64,000 nucleotides of DNA from Sphingobacteriales bacterium UTBCD1. GTDB taxonomy: Bacteria; Bacteroidota; Bacteroidia; Chitinophagales; Chitinophagaceae. Shown one piece after another: positions 23,756-51,172 of this stretch. Below the pieces are notes generated by a model. That model saw only the letters and a list, made by a program, of their open reading frames with translations. It was not told the origin of the DNA and did no database searches. Made by a program: the position numbers and the translations under genes. The stretch's first letter is position 1. Each line of letters starts with the position of its first letter. The DNA lies in contig MWTC01000031.1 of NCBI GenBank assembly GCA_002066995.1, forward strand, positions 11,649-75,648, in the 5' to 3' direction.

Positions 23756-24646
23756 ATGAAAAAGATACTATATATATTGTCGGTGGCCGCTTTGGTAATC
23801 GTCATTCATTCATGTAAGAAAAAAGAGAGCTTAAATGTTTTCTCTGATTACAAAAATTTAGGCCTTGGAACTTACATGACGCTTGACAAAAACATTAATT
23901 TGAATCTGGATTTCTCTCACCTGGCAACATCTACTGTTGGAATACAGGTGAGCCAGTATCCCAATGGCCAGGCTATAGATCATATCATTCTATTTGCTAC
24001 CACAAATGCCTCTTATGATACTACTCAATGGCATTTTGTGAAATCAATTCCTTACACAGGCCCGGGTACCCAGTTAACTGTGAGCGGTGCAGAATTGGCC
24101 ACATCACTTGGAGTGAGCATCGGGACGTTGCAGCCCGGTACTGCATATACTTTTTATACCCGCATCATTACAAAACAAGGATATAGCTTTGATGTAAATA
24201 CTACCGGTGATAACGGGGGGGGTGGTTTGGTGACCGGAGCATACTACAACTCTGTATTTTCATTCACAGCTTATATTGTTTGTCCCTTTACCGGGAATAT
24301 GGTGGGTACTTATAAAGTAATAAGGGATGATTGGGCTGACTGGTCACCTGGTGATATGGTACAGGTAACTGACGGGCCCGGTGCCAACCAGATCAATTTA
24401 AGCCAGGTATATCCAGGAGGTGGTATTATCATTAATCCTTTAATTGTAAATATTGATCCTGCCAGCGGTACTGCAAAAATTCCAAAGACCGTATTTGGGA
24501 AATATTCCGCTAATGGCCACCAATATACTGCAGAAGGAGCAGGAGATAGTGACGTAGCAGGTTTTGTATTTTCCTGTACAGGCTATATCACTTTAAACAT
24601 TAATATTGATGGAGATCCATACAAATTGATCTTGCAAAAACAGTGA
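23756..24646 (+). CDS. PUL-associated lipoprotein of unknown function
   Basis: Lipobox (VIHSC), 296 aa, 14 nt after susD and followed by a terminator. I recognise no catalytic motif. Confidence 0.65.
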   Translation: MKKILYILSVAALVIVIHSCKKKESLNVFSDYKNLGLGTYMTLDKNINLNLDFSHLATSTVGIQVSQYPNGQAIDHIILFATTNASYDTTQWHFVKSIPYTGPGTQLTVSGAELATSLGVSIGTLQPGTAYTFYTRIITKQGYSFDVNTTGDNGGGGLVTGAYYNSVFSFTAYIVCPFTGNMVGTYKVIRDDWADWSPGDMVQVTDGPGANQINLSQVYPGGGIIINPLIVNIDPASGTAKIPKTVFGKYSANGHQYTAEGAGDSDVAGFVFSCTGYITLNINIDGDPYKLILQKQ

Positions 24647-46735: not shown

Positions 46736-47765
46736 ATGAGAAAAATTACCCCCCCCGACATTTTTTTCCAAATCACTTGCTTGCCTCTTAGTAATCTTTT
46801 CTGTTTTGCTCAGTTTTAATTCCTGTAAAAAGGAAGAAAAGAAATCTGATGTCGCAATGCAGGAAGAATCTGTCAATAAAGTTCATCCTAATGTTCCTCA
46901 GTGTAGTAACGGCTATCACTGGGACTATAACTTAATGCAGTGTGTACCCAATTGCCCATCCGGTTATATTTATGATCCTGAAACAAATGATTGTATTCCC
47001 AATGAACCAAGCGGTGGATCCAGAATTTGTGGTGCAGAATTTAACCAATTTAATTTAGGTGGTTATACATTAAGCCAGGTGATCGAATATATAGGCGTGA
47101 AACACAACGAATATCAGGATTTCATTTATAATGGCATTATGGCTGATACATCAGTCCTTACTAACGGAACATTACAGGCTTTCCTAAAACAAAAAACGAC
47201 AACTTTTTTTAAAGGGCTGGGCATAACTGAAGCTAATAATCCATTACCCGGAAACTTTGATATATTAGATACAAGCTTTGTAATCACCGGTTATTCTTCA
47301 AGTGCAACAACTATTCTTAATCAATTAAAAGGGATTGCAGATGGATATACTGATGAAAATTATTTCCAGATAATTAACACGCTGGAAAACCTGAAGCAGC
47401 AGGCCCTCAATTTACCTGATTTTACAGAAGCTTTAGCAGTAGCAGGTTGCATAAGTGTTGCTAAACATTCTTATCAGTATTGGACTTACAATCTTACAAA
47501 ATGGTATGCTGTATTACATTTAAGTGGTAGCGGTTATGCAAATAAACAAGCTCCATGTGGTATTAATGTAAAAAAGATTGGAGGGAAAGATGTTATTGGA
47601 GCAATTAATGGGGCTACATTAGGATCTTTTGGAGGAGTTGTAGGTGCATTTGCCGGAGGAATTCTTGGCAGCGCTACTGCTTCGGCAGGACAGGTTTTGT
47701 GGGAAGCCGCAAAATGTATACCCTATGTAGGGAATGTAGTAAGATGGTTATCCGATTGGTTTTAA
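46736..47765 (+). CDS. Putative surface lipoprotein toxin with a C-terminal glycine-zipper module (5' end frameshifted in a C8/T7 tract)
   Basis: The ATG at 46736 opens MRKITPP..., which stops at 46817-46819. The main frame (ORF-track 46806-47765) read backwards encodes ...PPTFFSKSLACLLVIFSVLLSFNSC, a complete lipoprotein signal, if one nt is removed from C8 (46749-46756) or T7 (46761-46767). Mature N-terminus is CKKEEKK. C-terminus is GAINGATLGSFGGVVGAFAGGILGSATASAGQVLWEAAKCIPYVGNVVRWLSDWF. Confidence 0.7.
46749..46767 (+). repeat. C8 and T7 homopolymer tracts at the frameshift point of the toxin gene
   Basis: Counted directly: C at 46749-46756 and T at 46761-46767. Confidence 0.9.
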
Positions 47766-47795
47766 TCTATGTTGAGATATTTAAAATAGCCATGT

Positions 47796-48029
47796 ATGAA
47801 CTTTTTTTCGCACATACGGAATAAGATAAGAGAATCCAAAAAATTTACTATTATATTTATTGTTATATACAGCGTTATATTTTTTTTACTCTTAAGACTA
47901 TTTATTCCGGTATATGCTCACTCTTCAGATTTAATATTATTAATAATCACCAATCTTGTTGTAGTCTTTTATATTCGAAAAAAATTTTTAATTAAAAAAA
48001 AGGAGAAGGATCATCAACAATTGAAATAA
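47796..48029 (+). CDS. Small two-helix membrane protein, putative immunity protein (type A, copy 1)
   Basis: 77 aa: basic N-terminus MNFFSHIRNKIRESKK, two hydrophobic helices and a Lys-rich tail ending DHQQLK. Starts 30 nt after the toxin stop. Confidence 0.6.
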   Translation: MNFFSHIRNKIRESKKFTIIFIVIYSVIFFLLLRLFIPVYAHSSDLILLIITNLVVVFYIRKKFLIKKKEKDHQQLK

Positions 48030-48260
48030 AAAGACCCGGCCAGTCGGTTGATAAACGTTTAACAAAAAGGTTATGGAGGTGCTGATATTAAAGGCGCATT
48101 TGTCGGTGGTAGAATAGGTTTAGCTGCAGGGGCTCCGGGTGTATTTGCGGGAGCAATTTTGAGTAGTGCAGTTTTTTCTTCAGGGCGGGTATTATGGGAA
48201 GCCGCTAAATGCATACCTTATGTAGGAGGAATAATTAGATGGTTAGATGATTGGTTTTAG
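48030..48260 (+). other. Orphan toxin C-terminal cassette 1 (frame intact from 48063, no start codon)
   Basis: 48063-48260 translates to QKGYGGADIKGAFVGGRIGLAAGAPGVFAGAILSSAVFSSGRVLWEAAKCIPYVGGIIRWLDDWF*, collinear with the last 64 aa of the full-length gene. A TAA at 48060-48062 replaces a Lys codon (INV*QK vs INVKK). Confidence 0.75.
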
Positions 48261-48291
48261 TTTATTTCATGATTTTATTAATTTATTTGAT

Positions 48292-48522
48292 ATGAACTTT
48301 TTTTCGCACTTACGGAAGAAGATAAGGGAATCCAAAAAATTTACTATTATATTTGGTATCATATACAGCGTTATATTTTTTTTACTCTTTAGACTATTTT
48401 TTCCGGAATATGCTCACTTTTCGGATTTAATATTATTAATAATTACCGGGTTTGTCGGTGACTTTTATATCCGAAAGAAATTTTTAAATAAAAAAAAGAA
48501 TGATCATCAACAATTGAAATAA
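48292..48522 (+). CDS. Putative immunity protein (type A, copy 2)
   Basis: 76-aa paralogue of 47796-48029. I use the internal ATG at 48292, because the ORF-track start at 48247 lies inside the cassette tail. Confidence 0.6.
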   Translation: MNFFSHLRKKIRESKKFTIIFGIIYSVIFFLLFRLFFPEYAHFSDLILLIITGFVGDFYIRKKFLNKKKNDHQQLK

Positions 48523-48752
48523 AAAGACCCGGCCAGTCGGTTGATAAACGTTTAACAAAAAGGTTATGGAGGATCTGATATTAAAGGCGCAATTGCCGGT
48601 GGTAGAATAGGTTTAGCTGCAGGGGCTCCGGGTGTATTTGCGGGAACAATTTTGGTTAGTGCAGTTTTTTTTCAGGGCGGGTATTATGGAAAGCTGCAAA
48701 ATGTATTCCTTATGCAGGATCTGTGATCAGATGGTTAAGTGATTGGTTTTAA
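48523..48752 (+). other. Orphan toxin C-terminal cassette 2 (frameshifted)
   Basis: Near-identical to cassette 1 at the 5' end. There is a 1-nt deletion at the T8 run (48665-48672), which puts the VLWKAAKCIPYAGSVIRWLSDWF* tail out of frame. Confidence 0.7.
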
Positions 48753-48778
48753 TACAGAGAAATTATAATAAAATTCTT

Positions 48779-48994
48779 ATGAAATTTTTATCCAGGTTAA
48801 GAAATAAAATTTGGGAATCTGCTCCACTATTCTACATCTTTGGTTTGATAAACAGTGTTATTGTTTTTTTCCTTCTTAGGCAATTTCTTCCTGAATGGAC
48901 AGACTTTTCCGTTTTAATCATTGTCATTATTTCCGGTATAATTGGTGACTATTATATAAGAAAATGGTACATTAAAAAAAATAAAAAGGAGTAA
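48779..48994 (+). CDS. Putative immunity protein (type B, copy 1)
   Basis: 71 aa starting MKFLSRLRNKIWESAPLFY, with the same two-helix architecture. Internal ATG at 48779 used. Confidence 0.55.
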   Translation: MKFLSRLRNKIWESAPLFYIFGLINSVIVFFLLRQFLPEWTDFSVLIIVIISGIIGDYYIRKWYIKKNKKE

Positions 48995-49029
48995 TCATTG
49001 GAGCTGCACTTATGACATGGCTTATTCAT

Positions 49030-49109
49030 CAGGAGCAGTATTATGGGAAGCCGCAAAATTTATACCATACGTAGGGAATGTAGTAAGATGGTTATCTGAT
49101 TGGTTTTAA
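49030..49109 (+). other. Orphan cassette 3: tail-only remnant
   Basis: Encodes ...SSGAVLWEAAKFIPYVGNVVRWLSDWF*. It and its 3' flank match 47690-47795, offset 1345 bp. Confidence 0.7.
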
Positions 49110-49140
49110 TCTATGTCGAGATATTGAAAAATGACCTTAA

Positions 49141-49371
49141 ATGAATTTTTTTTCATACATAAATAATAGGATAATAAAATCCAAGAGATTTGCGATAATT
49201 TATAGTATTATTGTAAGTGTTATTACATTTTTTCTCGGCGCACTATTTATCCCTGATCTTAGGGATATTCCCGACCTGATAATAAGTATTCTTACCGGGC
49301 TTGTCGCCCACTTATATATTAGAAAATTTTTAACTGAAAAAAAGGAGAAGGATCATCAACAATTGAAATAA
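49141..49371 (+). CDS. Putative immunity protein (type A', divergent)
   Basis: 76 aa starting MNFFSYINNRIIKSKRF, two helices, tail EKDHQQLK. Confidence 0.55.
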   Translation: MNFFSYINNRIIKSKRFAIIYSIIVSVITFFLGALFIPDLRDIPDLIISILTGLVAHLYIRKFLTEKKEKDHQQLK

Positions 49372-49601
49372 AAAGACCCGGCCAGTCGGTTGATAAACGT
49401 TTAACAAAAAGGTTATGAAGGAGCTGATATTAAAGGCGCAATTGCCGGTGGTAGAATAGGTTTAGCTGCAGGGGCTACAGGTGTATTTGCGGGAACAATT
49501 TTGGTTAGTGCAGTTTTTTTTCAGGGCGGGTATTATGGAAAGCTGCAAAATGTATTCCTTATGCAGGGAATGTAGTAAGATGGTTATCCGATTGGTTTTA
49601 A
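49372..49601 (+). other. Orphan toxin C-terminal cassette 4 (frameshifted)
   Basis: Same 5' junction (AAAGACCCGGCCAGTCGGTTGATAAACGTTTAACAAAAAGGTTATG) and the same 1-nt deletion as cassette 2. Tail is ...AGNVVRWLSDWF*. Confidence 0.7.
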
Positions 49602-49631
49602 TTTAGAGTCAATTATTTAAAAATACCTTAA

Positions 49632-49865
49632 ATGAAGTTTTTTTCCGCTTTACGGAATAAGATAAGAAAATCCAAAAGGTTTACTATTTTATTTAGTGTT
49701 ATATACAGCGTTATATTTTTTTTACTCTTAAGACTATTTATTCCGGAATACGCTCACTCATCAGATTTAATATTATTAATAATCACCGGGATAGTCGTTG
49801 ACTTATATATTCGAAAAAAAATTTTAATTAAAAAAAAGAAGAATGATCATCAACAATTGAAATAA
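49632..49865 (+). CDS. Putative immunity protein (type A, copy 3)
   Basis: 77 aa starting MKFFSALRNKIRKSKRF, a paralogue of copies 1 and 2. Confidence 0.6.
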   Translation: MKFFSALRNKIRKSKRFTILFSVIYSVIFFLLLRLFIPEYAHSSDLILLIITGIVVDLYIRKKILIKKKKNDHQQLK

Positions 49866-50095
49866 AAAGACCCGGCCGGTCGGTTGATAAACGTTTAACA
49901 AAAAGGTTATGGAGGAGCTGATATTAAAGGCGCAATTGCCGGTGGTAGAATAGGTTTAGCTGCAGGGGCTACAGGTGTATTTGCGGGAACAATTTTGGTT
50001 AGTGCAGTTTTTATTCAGGGAGGGCATTATGGGAAGCTGCAAAATGTATTCCTTACGTAGGGTCTGTGATCAGATGGTTAAGTGATTGGTTTTAA
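49866..50095 (+). other. Orphan toxin C-terminal cassette 5 (frameshifted)
   Basis: Same junction sequence. It is 1 nt shorter than cassette 1 in GCAGTTTTTATTCAGGGAGGGCATTATGGGAA. Tail is ...VGSVIRWLSDWF*. Confidence 0.7.
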
Positions 50096-50121
50096 TACAG
50101 AGAAATTACAATAAAATTCTT

Positions 50122-50352
50122 ATGAAATTTTTATCCAGGTTAAGAAATAAAATTTGGGAATCTGCTCCACTATTCTACATCGTGGGTTTGATAAACACTG
50201 TTATTGGTTTTTTTCTCCTTACTCTATTCATTCCTGAAATGAGAAATTCTGGCTATCTCATACTATTTATAATCTGTGGATTAATCACTGACTATCTCTT
50301 AAGAAAGATGTACTATAAAAAAAAGAAGAATGATCATCAAGAATTGAAATAA
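50122..50352 (+). CDS. Putative immunity protein (type B, copy 2)
   Basis: 76 aa starting MKFLSRLRNKIWESAPLFY, with the first ~20 aa identical to the 48779 copy. Internal ATG at 50122 used. Confidence 0.55.
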   Translation: MKFLSRLRNKIWESAPLFYIVGLINTVIGFFLLTLFIPEMRNSGYLILFIICGLITDYLLRKMYYKKKKNDHQELK

Positions 50353-50395
50353 AATTCATCTGAAGAAAAGAACTACACAGCCTTCCAATTAAAAT

Positions 50396-50415
50396 TCCCG
50401 GCTTTGCGACCGGGA
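50396..50415. terminator. Hairpin between the toxin array and atpC (possible bidirectional terminator)
   Basis: TCCCGG-CTTTGCGA-CCGGGA. The flanks are A/T-rich but have no long U-run on either strand. Confidence 0.3.
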
Positions 50416-50459
50416 TCAATAAGTTAAGAGTGTTAAAAGATTTACACCTGAGTTCTTGA

Positions 50460-50720
50460 TTATTCGCCGAGCTGCTTTGCGCCTTCTACAAGTACGGTAA
50501 CCTTATTGCGCAGCACCTCAACAAAACCTCCCTGAACCTCAAACTGAGCGGTATTATTTTGTTTGTCTTTTAAAATTTTCAGGTTGCCGGCTTTCAATGC
50601 ACTTACCAATGGCGCATGTTTCTCCAGTACTTCAAAACTGCCGCTGATGCCCGGCATCTGAACGCCGTACACTTCGCCGCTGTATAATTTTTTTTCCGGG
50701 GTTAAAATTTCTAAGTTCAT
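50460..50720 (-). CDS. atpC: F0F1 ATP synthase subunit epsilon (short form)
   Basis: 86 aa. LEILTPEK..Y.GEV..V..PG..G.F.VL..HAP is the N-terminal beta-sandwich of epsilon. The helical C-terminal domain is absent. Confidence 0.85.
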   Translation of the reverse strand: MNLEILTPEKKLYSGEVYGVQMPGISGSFEVLEKHAPLVSALKAGNLKILKDKQNNTAQFEVQGGFVEVLRNKVTVLVEGAKQLGE

Positions 50721-50751: not shown

Positions 50752-51117
50752 TCATTCTTCGCCTTTCAAAGTATTATAAAAAGCAAGGATCATTTTATAA
50801 ATCTGCAAGGCCTCATCAATCAAAGATTCATAAATCTCTTTTGTCAGATAGTTAACTCTAAAAGCAAGCTCAATCTGAGTTTGTGCTTCATTTATCGAAC
50901 CCATTGAGATTTCAAGAAATCTTTTAAACTGTTTATTGGTACCTCTCCCTGCTCCTTCAGAAATATTACTTGGTACAGAGACCGCACAACTCCGAAGTTG
51001 AGCAGTAAGTCCATATTTTTCTTCCTTTGGAAAATTTGCGCTTACTTCATAAATCTTAACCACATAATCCATGGAACGCTGCCAGATCTTTAACTCCCTG
51101 TAATTATGCATGCCCAT
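50752..51117 (-). CDS. Four-helix-bundle protein (23S rRNA intervening-sequence protein family)
   Basis: 121 aa with the family pattern Y.EL.IWQ....V..IY.....FP.EE.YGLT.Q.RS.AVSVPSNI.EG.GR....F..FL.I..GS..E..TQ. Confidence 0.85.
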   Translation of the reverse strand: MGMHNYRELKIWQRSMDYVVKIYEVSANFPKEEKYGLTAQLRSCAVSVPSNISEGAGRGTNKQFKRFLEISMGSINEAQTQIELAFRVNYLTKEIYESLIDEALQIYKMILAFYNTLKGEE

Positions 51118-51130
51118 TGAGAGATATTTA

Positions 51131-51172
51131 GACCTTAAGTATTCAGTATTGAGACCTTAAGTATTCAGTATT
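51131..51172. repeat. Tandem direct repeat, 2 x 20 nt with a 22-bp period (GACCTTAAGTATTCAGTATT)
   Basis: 51131-51150 and 51153-51172 are identical and contain the AGTATT(C/G)AGTATT motif related to the flanking inverted repeat. Confidence 0.85.

Follow-up and report, generated by a model that had tools for sequence, protein, structure and literature searches.

A probable orphan immunity array with homogenised toxin-gene remnants in Sphingobacteriales bacterium UTBCD1

Class II bacteriocin loci, such as streptococcal blp, contain small membrane immunity genes and orphan immunity genes and are mosaic, with disrupted bacteriocin genes. Ross et al. reportedly described in 2019 the acquired interbacterial defence clusters of Bacteroidales, arrays of orphan immunity genes directed against type VI secretion system effectors, with links to mobile elements or a recombinase. 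The Fab1/RFab1 pair of Bacteroides fragilis consists of a 50-kDa protoxin with an active secreted C-terminal part (a 28-kDa fragment freed by fragipain) and a cognate immunity gene directly downstream, which is also found by itself as orphan immunity (PMC8406203). Neisseria maf islands carry MafB C-terminal (CT) cassettes, some of which lack an initiation codon (“silent”) and each of which is followed by a mafI gene (PMC4287609). Orphan modules of contact-dependent growth inhibition (CDI) loci have been regarded as a fossil record retained for immunity or as a silent reserve, and both views are debated (PMC4927057). Here we analyse an array of toxin-gene remnants and small membrane-protein genes in a 64,000-nucleotide stretch of Sphingobacteriales bacterium UTBCD1 (contig MWTC01000031.1 of assembly GCA_002066995.1), referred to below as the window, with emphasis on positions 48030–50095. 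On the plus strand, a toxin-like open reading frame (ORF) is followed by six small ORFs (I1 to I6) interleaved with five copies of its CT-coding part (C1, C2, C3s, C4, and C5). The array is probably an orphan immunity array in which dead CT remnants are homogenised by concerted evolution and in which the toxin gene has been turned off by a frameshift.

Conservation, selection, and exchange in the array

The four long cassettes (C1, C2, C4, and C5; 230–231 nt) begin with junction copies at 48030, 48523, 49372, and 49866 whose first 46 nt are identical save for an A/G difference at position 13 of C5, which bears out the nearly invariant junction of ~50 nt described in the original prediction, a reading of the sequence alone that preceded this work. 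That reading also held that the cassettes are better conserved than the small ORFs between them, and alignment with per-site identity agrees. Mutual identity is 88.3–95.2% among the long cassettes and 92.7–97.6% in their bodies (first 165 nt), compared to 55.8–89.2% among the six small ORFs. Each of the six unit pairs has a significant difference between body and adjacent small ORF (Fisher p = 0.024 to 6e-18), and the body is less diverged even than the synonymous sites of the closest small-ORF pair (9/164 versus 12/44.5, p = 1.4e-4).

Conservation of this kind could be mistaken for maintenance, and the pattern of change within cassettes points the other way. All six small ORFs are intact, and the ratio of nonsynonymous to synonymous substitution rates (dN/dS) is 0.13–0.50, with synonymous divergence (dS) between types above 1 or saturated. 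They are old alleles under purifying selection and not recent, fast-evolving copies; positive selection as the cause of immunity-gene divergence is excluded by this combination of low dN/dS and saturated dS. The cassettes have no start codons, the TAA is common to the four long ones, and a 1-nt deletion is common to three. Their variable sites are spread over the codon positions as 14:11:16, and nonsynonymous changes per site in the body are at least as frequent as synonymous ones. A related strain (L021, GCA_009612915.1), with an atpD gene 90% identical to that of the window and 74% identical at third positions, has a single visible cassette that keeps the TAA and is free of the frameshift. 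In its tail, one TGG has become TAG and another TGA, with further substitutions that break the glycine zipper; by these changes, coding sequence is not what is protected in the tails. By these patterns, the cassettes are pseudogenes that evolve neutrally.

The shared deletion was correctly recognised earlier: C2, C4, and C5 are without the C found at 48178 in C1 (T6CTT has become T8 or T5AT2), and the undeleted state is kept in C1 and in the cassette of L021. Sequencing error is rejected as the cause of the frameshifts: the cassette deletions, like the C8 tract of the full-length gene (below), recur unchanged in assemblies made independently, and the shortening of C5 does not lie in a homopolymer. 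The TAA requires a more divided judgement. The junction translates as KDPASRLINV*QKGYGG, with the stop at 48060, 48553, 49402, and 49896 and thus in all four long cassettes, and it had been proposed that the stop replaces a lysine of the full-length gene and that homology continues upstream of it. In the family consensus, C-x-[IV]-N-x-K-x-x-G-G-A-D, the TAA does fall on a nearly invariant lysine, but likeness upstream is confined to about three codons (I-N-V) and lacks significance as nucleotide sequence (p about 0.4–0.7). The first 33–39 nt of the junction have no significant similarity to the full-length gene, to the spacer upstream of it, or to the flanking sequence 3′ of I6; derivation of the junction start from the terminal hairpin beyond I6 was therefore dropped. 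The cassettes are only 61–65% identical to the CT of the full-length gene, with changes at all bases.

The tails vary as originally described. GNVV occurs in the full-length gene, C3s, and C4, GGII in C1, and GSVI in C2 and C5, and both GSVI tails precede type-B small ORFs (I3 and I6). A type-A ORF follows the GGII tail, and the link between tail type and immunity type is only a loose one. Uninterrupted tail frames ending in RWLSDWF are present, as had been noted, but an open frame of 12–25 codons is what chance would give.

Exchange among the cassettes is visible in natural variants. The analysis traced the window to JGI metagenome 3300038968. The same strain has been assembled from several other metagenomes, mostly from short reads, and most of these assemblies reproduce the array exactly; the strain is present in JGI 3300028826, 3300028830, and 3300024274 and in ENA ERZ23500426/ERZ23500400 (SHAF22-1) and ERZ27277020/ERZ27277179. 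In ENA ERZ27277020 and similar contigs (L015/L025), the order is I1-C1-I2, then a hybrid cassette, I6, and atpC; the hybrid is C2 to alignment column ~52 and C5 from column ~106, so that 1343 bp are deleted by a crossover inside the body. In contigs from ENA SHAF22-1 (L022/L026), eight single-nucleotide differences from the window all fall within 50013–50109, and all change C5 to C2 over a tract of roughly 100 nt, a cluster that has the signature of a gene-conversion tract. Array ends also differ among other strains, with an I5-like unit in one (L019) and a new immunity allele (P0158) in L021. Older exchanges are recorded as mosaics within the window. Unit 4 agrees with the cassette lineage at 77 of 78 informative sites as far as alignment column 194 and, beyond column 198, with the live unit, that of the full-length gene, at 80 of 94 sites (chi2 = 120); unit 1 switches at columns 165–169. 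Both breakpoints fall within the VLWEAAKCIPY codons or directly behind them, the place that the original prediction had given for the crossover. Units U2 and U5 are nearly identical in tail, spacer, and the initial 60 nt of the small ORF, beyond which they diverge. Unit 4 thus records at least one past exchange of a live-type unit with a cassette, and the mechanism is possible.

Transfer between lineages may also have occurred. The L021 cassette body is 90–93% identical to those of the window and its 3′ flank 98%, compared to 74% at atpD third positions. The non-coding DNA that separates the last immunity gene from atpC (L021 773–879 versus window 50353–50459) is 98% identical between the two lineages. 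These values suggest that the array end was recently transferred between lineages or that the region was introgressed.

The sequence of events that best fits these observations is as follows. The region would be the 3′ part of a polymorphic toxin-immunity locus from a previously undescribed Bacteroidota family. The product of its full-length gene is predicted to be a lipoprotein processed by signal peptidase II (SPII) and ending in a glycine-zipper helical hairpin of roughly 65 residues that resembles class II bacteriocins, and the small protein with two transmembrane (TM) segments encoded just downstream would be its putative immunity protein. One ancestral event may have fused an immunity gene, at its 3′ end, with the middle of the toxin gene and so created the junction with its TAA, after which the fused unit would have been copied repeatedly and reshuffled as the CT remnants, being repeats, recombined homologously with one another. 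Unequal crossover, which adds or removes units, and gene conversion would both act, and both are represented among the natural variants. Frequent recombination would keep the neutral, dead CT bodies nearly identical. The tail-plus-immunity segments would be too diverged to recombine and would be kept distinct by selection, and each immunity allele probably guards against a different competitor toxin variant. The locus would now be mainly an immunity collection, with the toxin off through a poly-C frameshift in this strain. Dead DNA would thus look better conserved than live genes because cassette bodies recombine often, without any selection for the cassettes. The suggestion that the cassettes are kept as recombination substrates fares accordingly: they do recombine, as the deletion and conversion variants attest, but that they are kept for this purpose is at odds with their neutral evolution and with the nonsense codons in L021. 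Cassettes would be recombination substrates because they are repeats, as a by-product, and not as a maintained toxin repertoire.

The toxin-like gene, its family, and the array layout

The full-length toxin-like ORF occupies 46806–47765 (plus strand) and is called as 319 aa from a TTG. It encodes a lipobox (...FNSC|KKEEKK), a Cys-rich stalk, a helical domain, and a glycine-zipper C-terminus, and its CT domain, PCGINVKKIGG...VLWEAAKCIPYVGNVVRWLSDWF, which alignments identify as the portion repeated in the cassettes, is encoded at 47553–47765. The only ATG with a signal peptide lies at 46736, at the start of a 5′ end (46736–46805, plus strand) that, read directly, is +1 out of frame with the downstream ORF. 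Between the two are a tract of eight C (C8, 46749–46756) and a T7 run (46761–46767). A tract of C7 or C10 would restore MRKITPP(P)TFFSKSLACLLVIFSVLLSFNSC, as in the intact relative P0002/L002. The same C8 and T7 occur in the window contig and in four other assemblies of the strain, which are all the assemblies that cover the tract. A related strain (L007) has C9 and is likewise out of frame, while in the more distant L002 the tract is interrupted and the gene is intact. The description of the full-length gene as “live” thus needs qualification: the large ORF itself is present, but its frame is broken relative to its own ATG in every assembly that covers the tract. The poly-C tract may be either a phase-variable tract, with C8 as the majority state, or the site of a fixed loss or recurrent inactivation hotspot. 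The sole other G or C run of eight in the window is a G8 run at 24215–24222, in frame inside an intact ORF (23756–24646).

The toxin, cassette 1, and three immunity proteins have no Pfam or NCBIfam match above threshold. A word-indexed search of 5.8 billion proteins returned three full-length relatives (49–72% identity) and one protein that shares only the N-terminal 70 residues. A profile search of 1.84 billion cluster representatives returned 598 clusters (50% identity), 122 of them at E <= 1e-10. Among GTDB representative genomes, only the already known Sphingobacteriales metagenome-assembled genome (MAG) was recovered, and JGI metagenome contigs gave no close relative and seven distant ones. 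Named family members are all “hypothetical protein” and come from Sphingobacteriales or Chitinophagaceae MAGs. Most members are about 270 aa long. Members have a signal peptide or lipobox; their helical region is conserved (...WHN.YQ..., ...SVA..S..YW..N...W...), and their C-terminus has the form C.(I/V)N.K.(L/I)GGAD..GA..G...G..GA.AG. An AlphaFold2 (AF2) model built on 80 family members (predicted local distance difference test, pLDDT, 84.8; predicted template modelling score, pTM, 0.77) has a small beta-rich Cys domain, a helical bundle, a C-terminal helical hairpin (255–302), and a last helix, and is all-helical from residue 77; Foldseek returned no PDB structure that matches this model at E <= 0.001. 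PF10439 gave sub-threshold matches in 2 of the 80 members (best 23.7 bits versus a gathering score of 27.1) and no match at E <= 1 to the window protein or cassette 1, and glycine-zipper Pfam families gave stray matches from single members among the 80. The likeness to class II bacteriocins is a matter of resemblance and not of membership.

The gene context is consistent across the family. A same-strand ORF for a protein of 66–157 aa starts at most about 60 nt downstream of the toxin gene in 10 of 10 family loci inspected. A hydropathy scan found at least one TM segment in nine of these ORFs; the tenth (L004, 69 aa), whose start falls outside the ATG filter of the scan, aligns with the two-TM ORFs of the window. 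Strain L007 occupies the same chromosomal slot between a DUF4197 gene and atpC. It shares the signal peptide and Cys-rich stalk, with 83% nucleotide identity up to window position 47017, beyond which it has an unrelated Cys-rich C-terminal part followed by an ABC transporter. In L007 596–3198, this Cys-rich part, an ABC ATPase, and a 250-aa multi-TM protein stand in place of the helical and glycine-zipper part and the immunity array (window slot 46736–50460). In this comparison a whole toxin-plus-protection module appears to have been swapped at one chromosomal slot. A further variant occurs in a Chitinophagaceae MAG (L008 7789–8577; also L028), where a 76-aa orphan CT ORF has its own ATG (MRSIKPCNVNLSKLGGAD...), a remnant signal-peptide ORF (MKIQITPRYTLLIFLALSMIGLSKYF*) upstream, and a second membrane protein (149 aa) downstream. 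This orphan looks like a duplicated toxin gene minus its middle, which suggests that orphans may arise by duplication followed by internal deletion. Features by which polymorphic toxins are recognised therefore recur here: a conserved N-terminal module with alternative C-terminal parts in related genomes (L007), a small gene of immunity type, judged by gene context, right downstream of the toxin gene (10 of 10 loci), and stand-alone CT cassettes with immunity genes (five in the window and one in L008/L028). Together they fit a polymorphic toxin-immunity locus with a putative membrane-acting toxin and a putative immunity partner.

Within the array, all elements lie on the plus strand. I1 (47796–48029) is a 77-aa two-TM ORF of type A and the putative cognate immunity gene. 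C1 (48030–48260) is an orphan CT without a start codon, with TAA at 48060–48062 but otherwise in frame, and ends in GGIIRWLDDWF. It is followed by I2 (48292–48522; 76 aa, two TM, type A; P0153 is a longer call of the same ORF), C2 (48523–48752; TAA and 1-nt deletion, tail GSVIRWLSDWF), and I3 (48779–48994; 71 aa, two TM, type B; P0155), the 3′ end of which was shortened by the deletion that made C3s. C3s (48995–49109) is a 5′-truncated orphan CT with a third body type, and its tail and following spacer are like the live unit, with 90–95% identity to U0 over columns 181–220. I4 (49141–49371; 76 aa, two TM, type A′; P0157) precedes C4 (49372–49601), which has the TAA and deletion and is a mosaic of a cassette body and a last 38 nt identical to the tail of the full-length gene. 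I5 (49632–49865) is a 77-aa two-TM ORF of type A, and a one-residue variant of it (P0156) is the terminal unit in another strain. C5 (49866–50095; TAA, deletion, tail GSVIRWLSDWF) is the partner of C2 in the recombination seen in other assemblies. I6 (50122–50352; 76 aa, two TM, type B; P0154) has 2 differences from I3 in the first 63 nt, a nearly identical stretch of ~60 nt, and is diverged in the remainder. A terminator-like G+C-rich hairpin (50396–50415) between I6 and the convergent atpC gene marks the array end. No other intergenic hairpin of this type occurs before 50396 in the scanned region, where a weaker match lies inside I2, and it is plausible that the array forms a single transcription unit.

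The array slot is a fixed chromosomal position from DUF4197 to atpC with housekeeping genes as neighbours, and no transposase, integrase, or recombinase gene occurs in the array or the neighbouring gene table. A gene for a 121-aa four-helix protein of the bAvd-like / 23S-rRNA-intervening-sequence type lies between atpC and atpD on the minus strand (50752–51117); it is missing at that position in L021, and no reverse transcriptase is nearby in the window. A 21-nt tandem duplication (AGACCTTAAGTATTCAGTATT) occurs at ~51131–51172, just upstream of this gene. A diversity-generating retroelement, considered in view of this bAvd-like neighbour, was rejected: there is no reverse transcriptase within 10 kb on either side, and changes affect all bases.

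Other explanations for the cassettes

A first alternative is that the bodies are young duplicates and that homologous recombination brought in the diverged tail-plus-immunity segments from other strains, with the dead body as upstream anchor, the immunity 3′ end and next junction (...GATCATCAACAATTGAAATAA AAAGACCCGG...) as downstream anchor, and the remnant as a passive landing pad. Such serial capture would account for the nearly identical sequence on both sides of the variable segments and for saturated dS between immunity types while bodies differ by 2–7%. It would also suit a region that seems introgressed between lineages differing by 26% at atpD third positions, and terminal units that differ by strain, including the new immunity allele P0158. 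The variants actually observed, a deletion and a conversion tract, are intra-array events and not imports, and no donor locus with a functional toxin of the cassette type was found among 5.8 billion proteins. Capture is inseparable from gene conversion with the strains compared, and on balance we consider it possible but unlikely.

The idea put forward originally, that the cassettes form a silent reservoir, holds that they are selected so that crossover in VLWEAAKCIPY can graft a new tail and immunity gene onto the expressed toxin, with altered toxin-immunity specificity as the outcome and with both TAA and frameshift bypassed. Units 1 and 4 do have their breakpoints in or just after these codons, unit 4 is the leftover expected of an exchange between the live unit and a cassette, and the tail co-varies with the downstream spacer or immunity gene in U2/U5 and U0/U3. 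A switch of this kind has been demonstrated by experiment for orphan Rhs modules, and one has been proposed for CDI and Maf systems (PMC4927057, PMC4287609). A foreign tail and immunity gene joined to the full-length gene were found in no assembled contig that spans this gene and I1, and all have the same full-length gene and I1. Exact identity with the CT of the full-length gene does not exceed 13 nt in cassettes with other tails (C1, C2, and C5); the single long run (38 nt) is shared with C4, the tail of which is no different from that of the full-length gene. RecA-type exchange usually needs roughly 20–30 bp of identity, and the available runs are below that need. Further points against a reservoir are the TAG and TGA in the L021 tail, the type-A immunity gene that accompanies the GGII tail, the small effect of a swap (only 4–5 residues altered), the frameshift in the recipient gene itself, and the neutral evolution of the cassettes. 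Crossover at the proposed codons is thus recorded in past mosaics, while exchange with the expressed gene as the reason for the existence of the cassettes is unsupported, and we regard the reservoir as improbable. A more elaborate proposal is that the dead remnant is a selected, recombinase-free landing pad that, with the conserved immunity-gene 3′ ends, serves to capture and shuffle tail-plus-immunity modules of competitors, with the poly-C tract as a reversible phase switch and the locus as a programmable toxin/immunity switch in a new Bacteroidota family of bacteriocin-like lipoproteins; we rate its chances as similarly poor.

Least credible is a cis-acting function, with the 165-nt body kept as a promoter, leader, or RNA element for the next immunity gene: one cassette does stand ahead of each immunity gene, body conservation exceeds that of synonymous sites of neighbouring genes, and conservation between lineages is high, but promoter-like sites are rarer than in shuffled sequence (6 versus 17.4) with none on the plus strand within a cassette, no cassette has a Bacteroidota-type TAnnTTTG box or an Rfam match (the only match, with E = 0.55 and far below the gathering score, is at the terminal hairpin past I6), I1 and I4 are intact without a long cassette ahead, and scattered changes accumulate in the L021 copy.

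Several points count against an orphan immunity array under concerted evolution and temper our preference for it. We infer toxicity, immunity, and expression from sequence and gene context, and the similarity to class II bacteriocins is weak. The sharp end of the conserved block at the VLWEAAKCIPY codons is not explained by concerted evolution alone. A slight chance remains that the recombinant variants reflect chimeric short-read assembly paths, though each recurs in more than one contig. The L021 body and flank are closer to the window than atpD third positions are, for which DNA-level constraint is a conceivable alternative to introgression. Finally, the frameshift of the full-length gene could be a reversible phase switch and not a loss.

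Relation to known toxin-immunity systems

Orphan cdiA-CT/cdiI and rhs-CT/rhsI modules are the nearest parallels in organisation. They share with the window array startless, promoterless CT fragments with immunity genes, arranged in tandem and in the same orientation behind a full-length gene, and an array reshaped by recombination between repeats. The differences are in the proteins and in the pattern of diversity. No two-partner secretion protein, filamentous haemagglutinin (FHA) or YD repeats, or VENN or PxxxxDPxGL boundary occurs here. By Pfam, neither the toxin nor neighbouring genes include CdiB, a haemagglutinin-repeat CdiA, or a VENN domain, and the protein is about 340 aa; RHS domains are likewise missing, and the model is a helical bundle. 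The carrier is a lipoprotein of roughly 340 aa, and the repeat is a membrane-type hairpin of roughly 65 aa, not an enzyme domain. In addition, the orphan bodies are nearly identical and not diverse, and no transposase or integrase occurs in the array. Maf islands resemble the locus in having a toxin of modest size that is secreted and alternative CT cassettes with immunity genes. The MafB family is unrelated, however: there is no DUF1020 match here, and the upstream gene is DUF4197 and not mafA. Maf cassettes encode different toxin domains, whereas here there is one disabled body and only the last ~12 codons vary.

Class II bacteriocins are similar in their Gly-rich helical peptide with GxxxG after ...GG and in the small TM immunity gene directly downstream. 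Here, a Sec/SPII lipoprotein with a 180-aa helical domain, and not a short prepeptide, has the peptide as its C-terminal end, no ABC exporter with a C39 peptidase lies within 10 kb, and the GG is not conserved (P0002 has SR). Fab1/RFab1 differs in that no sequence relationship to the window locus is shown and no cassette array is described for Fab1. Acquired interbacterial defence clusters are alike in having immunity genes without working toxins and conserved spacers and in being thought protective against competitors, but here the spacers are toxin-gene remnants in a fixed slot between DUF4197 and atpC, with no recombinase. An integron-like or recombinase-associated array does not match either, with no adjacent integrase or recombinase and with repeats that are toxin-gene remnants.

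Analyses of this locus suggest an unnamed, large Bacteroidota family (about 600 clusters at 50% identity) that has no Pfam family or solved fold. Judged by its architecture and gene neighbourhood, this family looks like a new class of bacteriocins that target membranes and are paired with dedicated immunity proteins. Similarity among the silent cassettes would be a product of gene conversion and unequal crossover. The locus also offers a general caution: high similarity of silent copies is not in itself a sign of maintenance. “Silent repertoire” and “fossil plus immunity” models could be separated here from sequence patterns, with immunity genes selected and toxin remnants drifting, and the array appears to match the model of a fossil record retained for immunity that has been proposed for orphan CDI modules. 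In comparison with described systems, the logic of orphan CT and immunity genes is, by this analysis, already known from CDI, Rhs, and Maf loci and from mosaic class II bacteriocin/immunity regions. What would be new is a lipoprotein-borne, bacteriocin-like helical-hairpin family in Bacteroidota and an array that combines one homogenised, dead toxin sequence with diverse immunity genes.

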